Source: a virus
Lineage: Duplodnaviria > Heunggongvirae > Uroviricota > Caudoviricetes
Reading direction: 5' to 3' (one strand)
Length of the DNA: 64,000 bases
IMG/VR virus record: IMGVR_UViG_2974636330_000001
Location: 21,023-85,022 of that record
Shown: positions 5,210-31,087 of the stretch, piece by piece
Position numbering within the stretch: position 1 is the first letter of the stretch
Layout of the letters: each line of letters opens with the position of its first letter
The notes under the pieces: model-generated
What the model was told of the DNA's origin: nothing
Database searches by the model: none
The model's input: the letters and a program-made list of their open reading frames with translations, nothing else
Program-made: the position numbers and the translations under genes

Positions 5210-5638
5210 ATGAACTTCCCGAGGATTACGGATGACTTCGCCTCGGCCTTGAAGAAGGGTACGACCCTTCCGACGCGATTCTGGCTAAGCCTGTCGATGA
5301 TGCTTTATTCGGCAGGCTTTTTCTTGAATCAGGGCACGTGGCTGTTGTCCCCGACCTTCCAACAGATGACGCAGCTCGCCAAGGTGGAATACTGGGGCGC
5401 GTTGTACGGTGTTGCCGGAGTGTTGGGGATGTGGCGGGCAATCAGCCCAGTAAGTCGCCCGTTCTGGGCGTGGGTGGTGAATACACTGATCTTCTTGGTA
5501 TGGGTGCTGTCAGAGATCGTGAGGGTCTGGGGGCTGGGCTGGGAAAGCCTGTTCTCGACCCATACGGGTTTCCTGTTGATGGCAGGGTGGTGCTTGCTTC
5601 GTACCGAGGCAACGGAACGTGACACGGAGACTGCGTAA
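5210..5638 (+). CDS. integral membrane protein (3-4 TM)
   Basis: Hydrophobic stretches throughout. Sits between the fibre and lysis genes. Confidence 0.45.
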   Translation: MNFPRITDDFASALKKGTTLPTRFWLSLSMMLYSAGFFLNQGTWLLSPTFQQMTQLAKVEYWGALYGVAGVLGMWRAISPVSRPFWAWVVNTLIFLVWVLSEIVRVWGLGWESLFSTHTGFLLMAGWCLLRTEATERDTETA

Positions 5639-27564: not shown

Positions 27565-27727
27565 CCTCGACGTGTGCGCCCGGGAGGGGTCTGAGAAATC
27601 AGGCCCCTCTTTTTATTGGGCGACAGTCGGAAAATAAAGGTAAAAACTGGCGAAAACCTCTTGCGCAGCCGGTGGGCATTCGTATACTAGGTCCATCAAA
27701 TCAATCAGCAACCAATGGAGTGACAGA
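27565..27727 (+). promoter_or_regulatory. terminator (GAGGGGTCTGAGAAATCAGGCCCCTCTTTTTAT), GGCGAAAA repeats, TTGCGC(27661-66)-N16-TATACT(27683-88), leader CCAATGGAGTGA
   Basis: Same cassette as 7996-8100. Confidence 0.5.
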
Positions 27728-28003: not shown

Positions 28004-28085
28004 GCCGCAAACCACCTAATTTTCTTGACTGACTACCTGCCAAGTAGTACAGTCTTTGAGACCCACAACCCCGGAGAGTTACCCC

Positions 28086-28562
28086 ATGGCACGCGATACC
28101 ATCTTCAAGGTGACCGACAACAAGCTCGGCACCACCGTCCTCGTCCAAGCCGCCAGCAAGCGCAAGGCCGAGAAGTTCCTCGAAACCGGCCGCTTCGTTG
28201 CCGAGAAGGCTTCCCCGGAAGAAATCACCCGCGCGGTGAATGAAGGTGGCAAGATTCTGGTCGAAGGCCCGCACGTTCCGTCCAGCGGCGACGTGGACCC
28301 GGCGCAGACCGCCACCGTCATCCACAACGGCCAGATGCTGGCCAACCCGGCAGAAGCAAAGGCTCCGCTGGCCGAGAAGGCTCCCGAGAAGAACCTCGAA
28401 AGCTGGCCGGCTGGTCATGAAGCTGGCGTCCAGCCGAGCGTCGAAGGTGGTCTGGCCGAAGCCGAGCAGGCTGATCAGGTCGTCAAGGAGCAGGCTGCTG
28501 GCGTGATCGCCTCCGACCTGCACGCCGCCGAAGGTGCCGAGAAGGCCACCGACGCCGAGTAA
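28086..28562 (+). CDS. hypothetical protein
   Basis: RBS GGAGAG; 158 aa, Ala/Glu-rich C-terminal half. Confidence 0.5.
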   Translation: MARDTIFKVTDNKLGTTVLVQAASKRKAEKFLETGRFVAEKASPEEITRAVNEGGKILVEGPHVPSSGDVDPAQTATVIHNGQMLANPAEAKAPLAEKAPEKNLESWPAGHEAGVQPSVEGGLAEAEQADQVVKEQAAGVIASDLHAAEGAEKATDAE

Positions 28563-28860
28563 TTGAAGTACCCCTGATTGCGGTCTCCCCACCGCAATGG
28601 GCGTAGCGCCTCCCCAGCGAACCGCCCCGCGTGCATCCGGCGATACGGGCCAGATAGTCCGGTTCCCCCCTGTTCCGGGGCTATCTGAGAGGCACCTGAC
28701 AGCTATCGGCTCACCGTTGACTGGAGTCACCGCCAGAAGAATACGGACAAGTCGGCCCGACTGAAACTCAGGTGCCTCCCAGATAGGTCCGAACAACCCA
28801 GAGAAGGAGAAGACCATGAAGTAGGTCTACAAGCCGCCCTAACGTCGTCCATGTTGTCTC
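28563..28860 (+). ncRNA. candidate structured non-coding RNA upstream of the tRNA cluster
   Basis: No plausible + strand ORF. An 8-bp hairpin ATTGCGGT/ACCGCAAT (28577-28598). Hairpin GATAGTCCGG...CCGGGGCTATC (28641-28674). A 19-bp long-range stem CTATCTGAGAGGCACCTGA (28680-28698) pairing with TCAGGTGCCTCCCAGATAG (28768-28786), enclosing further hairpins. Confidence 0.3.
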
Positions 28861-28904
28861 CCGTAGTACCCACAGAAAGACCTCAAATCAAATTGGAGAA
28901 CACC

Positions 28905-29240
28905 ATGTACGACAAGACCCAGACCAAGATCATCGACCGCCGCGAAATGCTGAAGGTCAAGCTGAAGTCCCTCGCTGCCGAGGCTCGCATCATCCGCAAG
29001 GAAGAGAGCAAGACCCACGGCGCACTGCGTGATGAACTGCACCGCCACCGCGTCGGCATTGTCCGCGAAGTGGCCCGCAGCACCCACATCGCATACGGGA
29101 TCATCCGGGGTAAGACCCTCGACCAGATCGAGCCGAATCGTCAGACGGAGCCGAACTGGGAAGCGATCAACAAGATGATCATGAAGTACGGCCCGCTGAA
29201 CACCGAAGAACGTGCGAAGCTGGTGGTGAAGGCGGCTTAA
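28905..29240 (+). CDS. hypothetical protein
   Basis: Leader AATTGGAGAACACCATG; 111 aa; ends 7 nt before the first tRNA. Confidence 0.5.
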   Translation: MYDKTQTKIIDRREMLKVKLKSLAAEARIIRKEESKTHGALRDELHRHRVGIVREVARSTHIAYGIIRGKTLDQIEPNRQTEPNWEAINKMIMKYGPLNTEERAKLVVKAA

Positions 29241-29247
29241 AAGTTAC

Positions 29248-29320
29248 GGCGAGTTAGCTCAGTTGGTAGAGCAGCAGACTCTAAATCAGAAGGTCACGGG
29301 TTCGATTCCCGTACTCGCCG
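29248..29320 (+). tRNA. tRNA-like gene with apparent anticodon CTA (amber-reading), weak anticodon stem
   Basis: Perfect acceptor stem GGCGAGT/ACTCGCC, D-arm GCTC-AGTTGGTA-GAGC, T-arm ACGGG-TTCGATT-CCCGT. The anticodon arm GCAGA-CTCTAAA-TCAGA has two non-Watson-Crick pairs. Loop CT-CTA-AA puts CTA at positions 34-36. Confidence 0.45.
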
Positions 29321-29353
29321 CAGTATGGTAGAGTAGTCCCCTTCCACGAACAC

Positions 29354-29429
29354 ACACCCATCATCTAGTTGGTCAGGATACCGGCCTTTCACGTCGTTAA
29401 CACGGGTTCGAATCCCGTTGGGTGTACCA
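29354..29429 (+). tRNA. tRNA-Glu (anticodon TTC), CCA encoded
   Basis: Acceptor ACACCCA/TGGGTGT. Anticodon arm CCGGC-CTTTCAC-GTCGT, the same loop as E. coli tRNA-Glu. T-arm ACGGG-TTCGAAT-CCCGT. Confidence 0.6.
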
Positions 29430-29436
29430 GCAAGAC

Positions 29437-29513
29437 GCGATGTTAACTCAGTCTGGTAGAGTCGCAGCCTTCCAAGCTGTCGGTCAAGGGTTCGAATCCC
29501 TTACATCGCTCCA
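29437..29513 (+). tRNA. tRNA-Gly (anticodon TCC), CCA encoded
   Basis: Acceptor GCGATGT/ACATCGC, D-arm ACTC/GAGT, anticodon arm GCAGC-CTTCCAA-GCTGT, T-arm AAGGG-TTCGAAT-CCCTT. Confidence 0.7.
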
Positions 29514-29522
29514 AGTTGTATC

Positions 29523-29608
29523 GGGTGGAGTTATCAGATGGGCGCTGAACCAGACTGTAAATCTGGTGTCTCCGGACTCGCTAGGTTCGACTCCTAGTCT
29601 ACCCACCA
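29523..29608 (+). tRNA. tRNA-Tyr (anticodon GTA), long variable arm, CCA encoded
   Basis: Acceptor GGGTGGA/TCTACCC, anticodon arm CCAGA-CTGTAAA-TCTGG, long variable arm, T-arm CTAGG-TTCGACT-CCTAG. Confidence 0.6.
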
Positions 29609-29625
29609 GTTGAAAGGGTGTTGTC

Positions 29626-29639
29626 TGCAATCAATTGCA
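29626..29639 (+). repeat. TGCAATCAATTGCA (non-coding, after tRNA-Tyr)
   Basis: exact match. Confidence 0.9.
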
Positions 29640-29644
29640 GGCAG

Positions 29645-30104
29645 CATCTGAAACCCTCTCAGGTCCAGCAGTAGCTGCGGACTGAAGTGGTCACCGATTA
29701 CGGGGTTCTCTATCTCCATAACCGGCTACGCGGGAGGGTTTCAGATGTTGCCTCGGATAGATGGGTGAGTGGCTTAAACCGGCGACCTGCTACGTCGCTT
29801 CCTCGAAAGGGGACGAAGGTTCGAATCCTTCTCTATCCGCCAGCATCGTCTACAGACCCCGCGTTGACCGGCGATACGGTCGAGAGGTAGGAGGGTGGCT
29901 TGACCTAGCGCGGTGGCCCGGCAGGGAGATACCGGTTAAAGCGAGGATCAACCTCGGCTGTCAGGCCACCCTCCTACGGACTGCATAGATGGGCGGCTTT
30001 GCCGTCAGGAAATTACACCGGCAGTCAGTCCTCCTGCGGAGGCCACCGGTCCCTATGTCTCCTGAAACAAAGCGGATTCGACCGAGATAGGCCGCCCTTC
30101 TATG
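29645..30104 (+). ncRNA. three tandem long-stem structured elements between/after the tRNAs
   Basis: Perfect 14-bp inverted repeat CATCTGAAACCCTC (29645-58) with GAGGGTTTCAGATG (29734-47). A 13-bp stem GTAGGAGGGTGGC (29887-99) with GCCACCCTCCTAC (29965-77). A 14-bp stem CATAGATGGGCGGC (29984-97) with GCCGCCCTTCTATG (30091-104). No credible ORF in the region. Confidence 0.3.
29755..29842 (+). tRNA. tRNA-Ser (anticodon GCT), long variable arm, CCA encoded
   Basis: Acceptor GGATAGA/TCTATCC, anticodon arm GCGAC-CTGCTAC-GTCGC, long variable arm, T-arm GAAGG-TTCGAAT-CCTTC. Confidence 0.65.
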
Positions 30105-30246
30105 TTGTCCAATGGTGGACGCTGGCATTCCCTTCGAGCGGGACAGGGCCAGCAAGGCAACCTCAGTAGCGGGCCAGTCGTGAGACTCGCGGGAAACCAC
30201 TACATGCCTTGTCGCACGACACCGGGACGACGCCAAATAATGGAGT

Positions 30247-30316
30247 AATAAGGCGAAAAGCCTTGCGCAATCGGAGACATTTGCTATGCTCTCCGCTCAC
30301 CACAACGGGGCAATTC
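30247..30316 (+). promoter_or_regulatory. promoter: AAGGCGAAAAG, TTGCGC(30264-69)-N15-TATGCT(30285-90)
   Basis: Conserved cassette downstream of the tRNA/ncRNA block. Confidence 0.45.
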
Positions 30317-31087
30317 ATGGATAAGAAAGTACAGGCGGCGCTGTCGGCAAAGATCGACGTGCGCGGTGAAGACTACACGGTCGAGCAGGCCCTCCTGAGC
30401 GCACACGGACACTTCGCCCCCGAAGACCTGATCAAGGCGATTCTGGACAGCCAGAAGCCGGAGGGCTTCATTGTTACGGGCCTGAGCGATTCCGAGCTGG
30501 TTTCGAAGTTGCAGGAAGTCGGCCACGCCGAAAGCGTCCGTGACATTCTCGTCAGCCGGATCGGCGTCCCCGCCCACACGGTGTTGATCGATGAAATGAC
30601 CTACGCCAACTGGAAGACGCGGTACAACGTTGAAACGTTGGCTGTGAACGGTGAAGCGTACTGGTACTGGCAAGGGGACAAGGAAGACTACCCGGAGAGT
30701 CTGACCTGCCCCGTCATCATGTCGGCAGAGCAGCTGCGCGAAATGCTGGGCAACGCCAACCGTTACAAGACATGGCGCGACTCGATGATCGCCCATCTGT
30801 TGGAAGATCAGCTGGTGATCCAGCAGGCTCTGCCGGAAGAAGTTGGCGAAAGTCGCCCACCAACCGCACAGGAGTGGGACAAGGCCATCGACGCCCTCCG
30901 AGCAGTGAAAGAGTCCGGCAAGAAGTGCGATCACTGCGACAACGGCAAGGTGATCAACGAGAACTCCCGAATGGCAGAAAGCTGCCGCCATTGTCAGCCG
31001 AAGTGCATCTGGCCCGACTGCGGCCACGACACGAACCGGGTGGGCTATGGCGCTGAAGGTTGCAACGGCGTGGGCTGCGTCAAGTGA
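30317..31087 (+). CDS. hypothetical protein with C-terminal Cys cluster
   Basis: ATG after the leader CACAACGGGGCAATTCATG, behind TTGCGC-N15-TATGCT. 256 aa; C-terminus CDHCDNGK...CRHCQPKCIWPDCGH...CNGVGC. Confidence 0.5.
   Translation: MDKKVQAALSAKIDVRGEDYTVEQALLSAHGHFAPEDLIKAILDSQKPEGFIVTGLSDSELVSKLQEVGHAESVRDILVSRIGVPAHTVLIDEMTYANWKTRYNVETLAVNGEAYWYWQGDKEDYPESLTCPVIMSAEQLREMLGNANRYKTWRDSMIAHLLEDQLVIQQALPEEVGESRPPTAQEWDKAIDALRAVKESGKKCDHCDNGKVINENSRMAESCRHCQPKCIWPDCGHDTNRVGYGAEGCNGVGCVK

Follow-up and report, generated by a model that had tools for sequence, protein, structure and literature searches.

The region 28563-30316 of Stenotrophomonas phage DLP5, in which five transfer RNA (tRNA) genes are clustered, contains four long stems that are selected RNA helices of ~20-22 bp, each closing a different RNA body. 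We denote the four helices with their bodies E1 to E4; all coordinates refer to the 64-kb stretch of the phage genome that was analysed (the window). Comparison with related phages gives us high confidence that E1-E4 are plus-strand RNA structures under selection. The explanation that we favour overall, and hold to be slightly on the probable side, is that this region is the RNA-rich core of an operon, with processed RNA elements, with structures that originated from the tail of a transfer-messenger RNA (tmRNA), and with a separate leader device in front of the gene for a protein of 111 amino acids (aa), DLP05_071.

Four long stems and the elements that they close

The four elements and their closing helices are as follows.

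28676-28791, plus strand: E1, a predicted rod-like RNA of ~115 nt with a conserved body at 28700-28767; closing helix 28676-28699 / 28768-28791, ~22 bp with two 1x1 mismatches
29639-29753, plus strand: E2, a closing helix around two hairpins; closing helix 29639-29660 / 29732-29753, 22 bp, continuous, with two G-U pairs
29887-29977, plus strand: E3, a closing helix around a predicted three-way junction; closing helix 29887-29904 / 29960-29977, 18 bp with one U-G pair
29978-30110, plus strand: E4, a closing helix around an exchangeable body; closing helix 29978-29999 / 30089-30110, ~20 bp with two 1x1 mismatches

An initial annotation of this DNA had listed four long inverted repeats, all of which are present where it placed them and most of which proved to be longer, although details of two had to be corrected. 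The perfect 14-bp repeat reported within E2 extends to the 22 bp given above. The upstream stem, described as 19 bp with one G·U, exists as part of E1, but its odd pair is A-C on the plus strand; similarly, the stem 29984-97 / 30091-104 of E4 is not perfect and contains one U-U mismatch. Small hairpins had also been reported upstream, and those at 28577-98 and 28641-86 are indeed present; the first of them and the hairpin H1 are as follows.

28577-28598, plus strand: hairpin of 8 bp, directly 3' of the stop codon of a 168-aa gene, AUUGCGGU / ACCGCAAU
28651-28686, plus strand: hairpin H1, CAGAUAGUCCGG / CCGGGGCUAUCUG, whose 3' arm is shared with the 5' arm of the E1 closing helix

When the whole window was scanned for inverted repeats within 160 nt, ranks 1, 2 and 6 of the ten best fell within this 1.7-kb region. 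Folding z-scores were -5.3 for E1, -5.1 for E2, -4.5 for E3 and -4.1 for E4, and none of 200 dinucleotide shuffles folded as well. These ranks and z-scores therefore indicate that the stems did not arise by chance. The stretch 30105-30250 shows no significant structure (z -0.85).

The elements do not form the single family of similar structures that had been suggested, as no pairwise local alignment among E1-E4 beats shuffles. The 3' halves of E1 and E3 look alike by eye, yet their local alignment is no better than that of shuffled sequences, and we rejected paralogy among E1-E4. Each element is present in a single copy in the window.

Searches with Rfam 15 over 28400-30500, a check that had been proposed with the first description, returned only tRNAs and tRNA-derived chance matches, both at the gathering score and at E <= 10, and E1-E4 gave no tRNA match at E <= 10 to the RF00005 and ARAGORN tRNA models. 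Loci of relatives, designated here by L and a number, were fetched from metagenomes through homologues of the 111-aa protein. Searching all of them with E1-E5 by nhmmer (E5 being the stretch after E4, described below) found Delepquintavirus-like loci only, plus locus L016 for E1. Exact-pattern scans for the E1 core and the E3 core in IMG/VR gave no match, the E1 core pattern had chance matches in coding DNA only in JGI metagenomes and GTDB genomes, and no copies of the elements were found in a plasmid collection or in other phages.

Selection on plus-strand helices

Only three close relatives exist among sequenced phages, namely DLP3, Summit and L005, a Summit-like metagenomic contig. Third codon positions of the 111-aa gene diverge by 17-21% between DLP5 and these relatives. 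Against this background E1 and E3 show 0-1 changes where about 13-19 would be expected: 0-1 differences in the 69 nt of the E1 body, and 0-1 differences in the 91 nt of E3 across DLP3, Summit and L005, in Summit even between a tRNA-Ser that is only 72% identical and an E4 that is 50% identical. Both elements are thus conserved far beyond what their helices need, loops included.

Where sequence does change, pairing is retained. Compensatory double changes number two pairs in the E1 closing helix (GG to AC with CC to GU, in DLP3), three to four in the inner helix of E2 (likewise in DLP3), and one in each small hairpin. One-sided substitutions that create G-U pairs on the plus strand only were seen twice in E4 (both G-C to G-U, in DLP3), twice in E2 (including A-U to G-U in the closing helix in Summit), once in H1 and once in the hairpin at 28577-28598, where U-A became U-G in DLP3 and the loop differs as well. 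The H1 changes in DLP3 are U-G to A-U and C-G to U-G, and an equivalent hairpin occurs in L016 at 5318-5345. Invariant wobble pairs also favour the plus strand, among them the U-G pair of E3, which is valid on that strand only. In all, at least nine G-U pairs or G-U-creating substitutions are valid on the plus strand alone, against one A-C pair, in E1. The double changes, the one-sided G-U substitutions and the low divergence therefore point to selected plus-strand helices, and the initial expectation that the pairings would be conserved in related phages was borne out.

The more distant locus L016 is informative for E1. The sequence of the E1 body is almost unchanged there, but it is closed by a different helix, perfect over 16 bp and unrelated to that of DLP5, and has an apical loop that is ~24 nt larger. 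A conserved body within a fully replaced helix is the classic signature of a structured RNA.

E4 behaves differently from E1 and E3. Summit and L005 retain a closing helix of partly different sequence, but inside it they have, in place of the DLP5 body, a hairpin and a tRNA-like cloverleaf that scores 30.1 bits with the Rfam tRNA model and whose anticodon arm is defective. DLP3 carries a 130-nt degenerate tRNA-like insertion after tRNA-Tyr (L003 2788-2920; for the E4 exchange, L002 3135-3265). When Summit E4 and the DLP3 insertion were searched with Rfam, both at the gathering score and permissively (E <= 10), tRNAs were the only matches.

Several observations weigh against this interpretation or limit it. 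Folding energies are similar on both strands and do not separate them, and the A-C mismatch in the E1 closing helix would be a G-U pair only on the minus strand. Few sequences could be compared: three close relatives and, for E1 and the tail motif described below, between one and three distant loci. E3 shows no variation, which leaves its internal fold a prediction, and part of its conservation could stem from recent recombination, the region being mosaic. Finally, the involvement of RNase III and RNase P proposed below is inferred from helix length and position.

Remnants of a tmRNA tail before E1 and E3

The initial annotation had missed that the sequences just upstream of E1 and E3 resemble the end of a tmRNA. 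In three relatives, an Rfam-confirmed two-piece tmRNA lies just downstream of the 111-aa gene and the suppressor tRNA:

L008 4545-4890: permuted tmRNA, tag ANDSVYAQAIAA
L011 5939-6237: permuted tmRNA, tag ANDAEFITAKAA
L016 4881-5249: permuted tmRNA, tag ANDSVFAAAA

The 3' tail of these tmRNAs consists of a hairpin with a CCUCGUCACC-type loop followed by ACAGACCCCGCGUG and a small hairpin with a GCGAUA loop, which are the last two helices of the Rfam beta_tmRNA model. This tail aligns to DLP5 28599-28650, before E1, and a shorter form of it to 29852-29885, before E3. The corresponding features in DLP5 are:

28599-28628, plus strand: tmRNA-tail-like hairpin 1, GGGCG ... CGCCC, loop CCUCCCCAGCGAAC
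28629-28649, plus strand: CCCCGCGUG flank and small GCGAUA-loop hairpin, copy a
29852-29883, plus strand: ACAGACCCCGCGU and GCGAUA-loop hairpin, second copy, stem 29864-70 / 29877-83

In alignments, hairpin 1 corresponds to the post-tag hairpin of the L008 and L016 two-piece tmRNAs, and also to the 3' end of the Rfam model beta_tmRNA, where the loop consensus is CCUUGUUACCAAAG. The stem of hairpin 1 covaries, being CG/CG in DLP5 and UC/GA in L008. Both parts of the tail, the CCUYGUYACC-type loop and the terminal hairpin, are found when 28599-28650 is compared with L008 4861-4902 and L016 5296-5332. The GCGAUA hairpin occurs in ten instances in 6 phages, all on the plus strand, with an invariant loop and 5' flank and a covarying stem; the second copy, for example, shows a compensatory G-C to U-A change in DLP3. 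Stem covariation amounts to 13 double-change cells, a number reached by none of 500 shuffles and by none of the slid controls, which were all lower. We also considered the motif as a sigma-70 promoter or as a terminator and rejected both, given the lack of conserved hexamers and of a U tract and the covariation in the stem.

DLP5 itself has no tmRNA. ARAGORN found no tmRNA in the window and no tmRNA-family Rfam match was obtained at E <= 10, which leaves DLP5 without a tRNA-like domain of this kind; no tag frame was found by ARAGORN, nor by eye (GCN-AAY-GAY ... GCN-GCN-stop) in 29600-30310. A hidden or fragmented tmRNA was rejected on these grounds, namely the lack of a tRNA-like domain and of a tag. 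DLP3 and Summit also have no tmRNA. The alignments show that E1 and E3 each have a 5' flank homologous to a two-piece tmRNA's 3' tail, and that the DLP5 lineage has lost the tmRNA proper and kept its accessory structures. In L016, the E1 homologue comes after the tmRNA tail and abuts tRNA-Leu.

Long helices of this kind are frequent in the tRNA and tmRNA regions of the relatives. Many closing helices there measure 13-30 bp and enclose bodies of 40-140 nt. Several of them abut tRNA or tmRNA ends, and often a helix takes up an entire tRNA-tRNA or tRNA-tmRNA spacer, for instance the one from the suppressor tRNA to the tmRNA in L008 (4405-4583). Permuted tmRNA genes have an intervening segment that is likewise a long helix around a body.

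A recoding leader matched to the suppressor tRNA

The initial annotation saw no credible open reading frame (ORF) in the region, and missed a read-through leader peptide. The region in fact holds the 111-aa gene, which has 215 database homologues, and a conserved leader of 8 codons:

28816-28842, plus strand: leader, 8 codons
28905-29240, plus strand: 111-aa gene DLP05_071

The leader has its own Shine-Dalgarno (SD) sequence, AAGGAG, at 28804-28809, and reads ATG AAG TAG GTC TAC AAG CCG CCC TAA, that is, M-K-UAG-V-Y-K-P-P-UAA, with an in-frame amber codon and an ochre end. It is conserved as a peptide in the relatives, also after the in-frame stop, and its codons vary synonymously or conservatively (V/I as GTC, GTG, ATT or ATC; Y/F as TAC, TAT or TTC; P as CCG, CCA, CCC or CCT). 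A strict form of the leader, defined as a start, at most 14 codons, a stop, 3-14 codons ending in Pro-Pro and a stop, is found upstream of the protein gene in 21 of 80 IMG/VR loci, against a background of 0.08% per 140-nt window.

The recoding site of the leader follows the suppressor tRNA. It fits the tRNA class of the same locus in 42 of 44 informative loci, which are not phylogenetically independent, and no cross-class mismatch was seen; the remaining two each had a second, probably spurious, leader call beside the matching one. The matching classes are:

leader UAG, anticodon CUA: 28 loci
leader UAA, anticodon UUA: 2 loci (L013 adds a third, by eye)
leader UGA, anticodon UCA: 1 locus
leader UGAA, anticodon UUCA in an 8-nt anticodon loop: 11 loci

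All four classes occur among proteins that are 55-65% identical to the DLP5 111-aa protein, which suggests that the match was re-established repeatedly. In the UGAA class the Pro-Pro frame can be reached by four-base decoding only, and the UUCA tRNAs are apparent natural quadruplet decoders. The 8-nt anticodon loop CUUUCAAU, with anticodon UUCA, was observed beside UGAA leaders in L077-L080, L085, L086, L088, L091-L095 and L117-L119, and the quadruplet frames of these leaders end in RAPP, RGPP or DPP. In L133, which has a UUCA tRNA, only a weak in-frame UGA candidate was scored.

The end of the leader adjoins a helix that hides the ribosome-binding site (RBS) of the next gene. In a plus-strand hairpin (28844-28861 / 28895-28913), 18 nt that start 2 nt past the leader stop pair with the SD, the AUG and the first codons of the 111-aa gene. 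Its arms are conserved in DLP3, Summit and L005, while its loop differs widely in both sequence and length and varies more than anything else in the region. The same RBS-sequestering topology is predicted in 25 of 29 diverse loci, with a mean of 7.6 RBS nucleotides paired against 3.7 in shuffles. The DLP5 leader thus has the features of a leader regulator: its own SD, a conserved peptide, and an end that abuts the helix over the downstream RBS. In E. coli, termination is slowed when Pro-Pro stands at the C-terminus, just before the stop codon. Many relatives' leader peptides have RAPP or RGPP at their end, both of them motifs documented to arrest ribosomes (PMC10951233, PMC12992588).

We propose that, when there is no suppression, ribosomes would release at the leader UAG and the 111-aa gene would stay closed. 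When the amber-suppressor tRNA out-competes release factor, the ribosome would run on to the Pro-Pro-stop, probably pausing there; at the leader end it would occupy the 5' arm of the hairpin, melting 28844-61 / 28895-913 and exposing the RBS of the 111-aa gene. With moderate confidence, we regard the leader as a natural recoding sensor, its codon matched to the tRNA, in many uncultured phages, and E1 and E3 could be its partner RNAs. According to the Summit genome paper the purpose of the suppressor tRNA is unknown; a sensor leader would provide at least one target for a tRNA whose purpose the Summit authors could not find. We found no prior description of a suppression-sensing leader in the literature.

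Stop codon usage was examined across the 81 annotated coding sequences in 1957-49777, which end in TAG in 7 cases, TAA in 31 and TGA in 43. TAG is the rarest, and every TAG-terminated gene has a further stop within 0-18 codons; amber suppression would therefore cost the phage little.

The 111-aa gene probably starts at 28905, which places the GenBank start (28851) 54 nt too far upstream. The protein is present in all relatives, the L016 homologue being 74% identical, and its family almost always adjoins a suppressor or other tRNA. A predicted model is confident and all-helical (predicted local distance difference test score, pLDDT, 89), and comparison with Pfam, PHROG and folds in the PDB gave no informative match. 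Most family members end in -KAA or -AA, resembling an ssrA-type degron (alignment A1).

Operon setting and gene order

All annotated genes and tRNAs are on the plus strand, with DLP05_072 as the sole exception. The other features of the region, in order, are:

ends at 28562, plus strand: 168-aa gene
28563-28815: non-coding upstream part
29248-29321, plus strand: tRNA-Sup(CUA), found by ARAGORN and Rfam, 67.7 bits
29354-29608, plus strand: tRNA-Glu(UUC), tRNA-Gly(UCC) and tRNA-Tyr(GUA), found by ARAGORN and Rfam
29609-29754: non-coding stretch holding E2
29755-29842, plus strand: tRNA-Ser(GCU), found by ARAGORN and Rfam
29843-30316: non-coding stretch after tRNA-Ser
30111-30316, plus strand: E5, 86-88% identity with frame-breaking indels, z -0.85
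starts at 30317: next gene

E5 is probably the promoter and 5' untranslated region (UTR) of the gene at 30317. The tRNA-Tyr(GUA) gene, called by ARAGORN at 29523-29608, is annotated in Summit and DLP3 and is missing from the DLP5 GenBank record, which has four tRNAs. DLP05_072 (29594-29719, minus strand, 41 aa) is very likely not a gene: it overlaps tRNA-Tyr and E2, is unannotated in Summit and DLP3, and its sequence is replaced in DLP3. Other ORFs over E2-E5 were rejected too, as neither DLP3 nor Summit conserves them: indels break the frames and sequence is replaced. Homologues of the upstream 168-aa gene were absent from the distant loci, and this gene is not a conserved partner of the tail motif.

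Upstream of the region there is a strong intrinsic terminator at 27582-27611, followed by a sigma-70-like promoter at 28025-28053 (TTGACT-17-TACAGT). Together they probably mark the start of an operon for the whole region. No plus-strand site resembling an intrinsic terminator (a G+C-rich hairpin with a U tract) is present in 28563-30316, and the long stems, with helices of 18-22 bp and loops of 55-90 nt, do not have the form of one. The region is therefore probably transcribed as one precursor.

A genome-wide palindrome

The initial annotation also pointed to a 14-bp palindrome next to E2. A copy of this near-palindrome, TGCAATCAATTGCA, does lie at 29626-29639, but it belongs to a genome-wide motif rather than being a feature of the region. 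The window contains 17 exact copies, at the following positions:

99, 5139, 7112, 11130, 15876, 18604, 25667, 29626, 34012
36431, 37107, 40232, 47649, 49653, 53850, 57462, 62380

With up to 2 mismatches allowed there are 44 matches, against 0.45 in shuffles. The copies are spaced every 2-4 kb, in both orientations and in coding as well as intergenic DNA, and the motif is also found in Summit (13 copies in 50 kb), L068, L011, L016 and L069. A phage protein probably binds to it, and the phage has ParB-like genes.

Processed RNAs and the alternatives

The favoured explanation is that E1-E4 would be co-transcribed with the five tRNAs in one plus-strand operon, and that the precursor would be cut in or beside the closing helices to yield discrete, blunt-ended, exonuclease-resistant RNAs of about 90-150 nt. 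RNase III is the probable enzyme at the closing helices, as these are of substrate length: an RNase III substrate needs ~20 bp or more, or two turns, of quasi-continuous double-stranded RNA, and the helices measure 22 bp in E2, ~22 bp in E1, ~20 bp in E4 and 18 bp in E3. RNase P may act at the junction of E2 and tRNA-Ser, since the base of the E2 helix lies 1 nt from the tRNA-Ser 5' end and so abuts the RNase P site. The tail hairpins may serve to shield 3' ends upstream of them. E1 and E3 are so strongly conserved in sequence that they probably act in trans, and their tmRNA ancestry makes a partner in the translation or trans-translation machinery plausible. E4, by comparison, would be an exchangeable cassette. 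Small RNAs or tRNA-processing by-products had been among the first suggestions for these stems, and this remains the most likely reading, now with conserved plus-strand pairings and the same orientation as the tRNAs on its side.

The elements could instead be passive spacers or insulators, whose hairpins stop tRNAs from misfolding and define processing sites, and whose excised pieces are functionless and degraded. Their placement exactly in the tRNA spacers, abutting tRNA ends, agrees with this, as do the mutually unrelated bodies and the swappable E4. Spacers would not, however, be expected to conserve the E1 body and E3 far past the helix, loops included, nor to keep the E1 body in a distant phage at another location with a wholly changed helix, and we consider this explanation unlikely.

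For E1 alone, a role as a cis-regulatory leader (a riboswitch, an attenuator or an RNase III-controlled 5' UTR) has to be weighed, in which CUAUCUG would pair with either of two CAGAUAG copies in mutually exclusive fashion. E1 ends 12 nt before the leader SD, H1 and the closing helix have one arm in common, and long helices also occur just upstream of the leader in L067, L011/L012 and L069. The L016 homologue, however, does not precede the leader but lies 1.4 kb downstream, by the tmRNA and tRNA-Leu; in many loci the leader has no structure upstream of it, and no intrinsic terminator follows E1. Such a role is therefore doubtful.

That the stems are decaying relics of tRNA or tmRNA genes, free of selection, would agree with the tmRNA-tail homology, the tRNA-like body of Summit E4 and the degenerate tRNA-like insertion in DLP3. 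Yet E2-E4 of DLP5 resemble neither tRNA nor tmRNA at E <= 10, and the compensatory changes and near-zero divergence argue for ongoing selection, which makes simple decay improbable.

Signals at the DNA level, such as a replication origin, a recombination or attachment site or a protein-binding cruciform, were part of the first description. Inverted repeats do form equally well in DNA, the energies are similar on both strands, and the palindrome at 29626 is of a protein-binding type. Nevertheless, the one-sided substitutions keep G-U pairs on the plus strand only, the cumulative GC skew runs without a turning point, iterons and repeated copies are lacking, and the palindrome is genome-wide and not local; a DNA signal is very improbable. 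Self-cleaving ribozymes, likewise suggested initially, or mobile elements of the miniature inverted-repeat transposable element (MITE) or repetitive extragenic palindromic (REP) type are hardly credible despite the 90-130 nt size, three-way junctions and terminal inverted repeats, as no ribozyme or other family of Rfam was matched at E <= 10, each element has terminal repeats of its own, which vary around constant bodies where MITEs would show the reverse, and no further copies were found in the window, in plasmids or in other phages.

Implications

These results add four unannotated selected RNA elements to the cultured, genetically tractable phages DLP5, DLP3 and Summit. They show that accessory structures of a tmRNA can outlive the tmRNA, so that the function of such structures could be approached through these phages.

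Of the two findings, the leader is the more surprising. Suppressor tRNAs are widespread in phages, which raises the question of why phages without recoded genes carry them; no conserved in-frame stop had been identified in genomes of the DLP5 group before this leader. Its presence would imply that the phage gauges how active its own suppressor is and ties a conserved protein to that activity, and the four-way match of codon and anticodon could serve as a natural orthogonal read-out for genetic-code engineering.

Comparison with known systems

The stems are a fresh case of a known theme, in which non-tRNA structured RNAs and tmRNA remnants reside in phage tRNA arrays. The tRNA cluster of phage T4 encodes stable non-tRNA RNAs, species 1 and 2 (rnaC/rnaD), which are co-transcribed with the tRNAs and released by the tRNA machinery, and whose function is unknown. 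They resemble the DLP5 elements in being small structured RNAs between or after phage tRNA genes. They are not related in sequence, however, and the DLP5 elements, known from sequence alone, have closing helices of ~20 bp and, in two cases, tmRNA-tail motifs.

GOLLD and ROOL are large ornate RNAs that are often found in phage tRNA arrays. The DLP5 elements share with them the ornate non-coding RNA by phage tRNA genes, but match neither of their Rfam models and form four small independent modules instead of one RNA of 500-800 nt.

RNase III stems are found in ribosomal RNA (rrn) operons and in the early transcripts of phage T7, the rrn stems being preceded by short conserved box elements. As in DLP5, helices of about two turns are formed there by sequences that flank a functional RNA or separate cistrons, whereas the DLP5 bodies are only 55-90 nt and cleavage in DLP5 is predicted.

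Summit E4, a long helix capped by a tRNA-like cloverleaf, has the architecture of YrlA (RF02553). DLP5 E4, by contrast, lacks the tRNA-like domain, and there is no annotated Ro/Rsr gene. YrlA gave no match in the permissive Rfam search of Summit E4, and in DLP5 its only match, at 20 bits (gathering score 69), lies at the tRNA-Glu/tRNA-Gly junction, outside the E elements.

Two-piece tmRNAs carried by phages are known (PMC9004378, PMC11915505; Rfam RF01850 beta_tmRNA and RF04321 tmRNA_permuted). DLP5 28599-28650 and 29852-29885 are homologous to their post-tag and terminal hairpins, and the intervening segment of their gene is a long helix around an excised body, as in the DLP5 elements. DLP5 differs in keeping the tail alone, in two copies, fused to other structures.

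Regulation by arrest or leader peptides is known from SecM, MifM and ApdA/ApdP, the last with RAPP/RGPP (PMC10951233, PMC12992588, PMC7897499), and a read-through-and-stall tail from AMD1 (PMC13025110). With the arrest-peptide regulators the DLP5 leader shares a short upstream ORF, here ending in Pro-Pro, and the principle that a ribosome at its end would melt an RBS hairpin; with prfB autoregulation it shares an in-frame stop as the sensor. What sets the DLP5 leader apart from arrest peptides, prfB and AMD1 is its putative input, which would be the decoding of a stop or quadruplet by a phage suppressor tRNA, with a sensor codon that co-varies with the anticodon.

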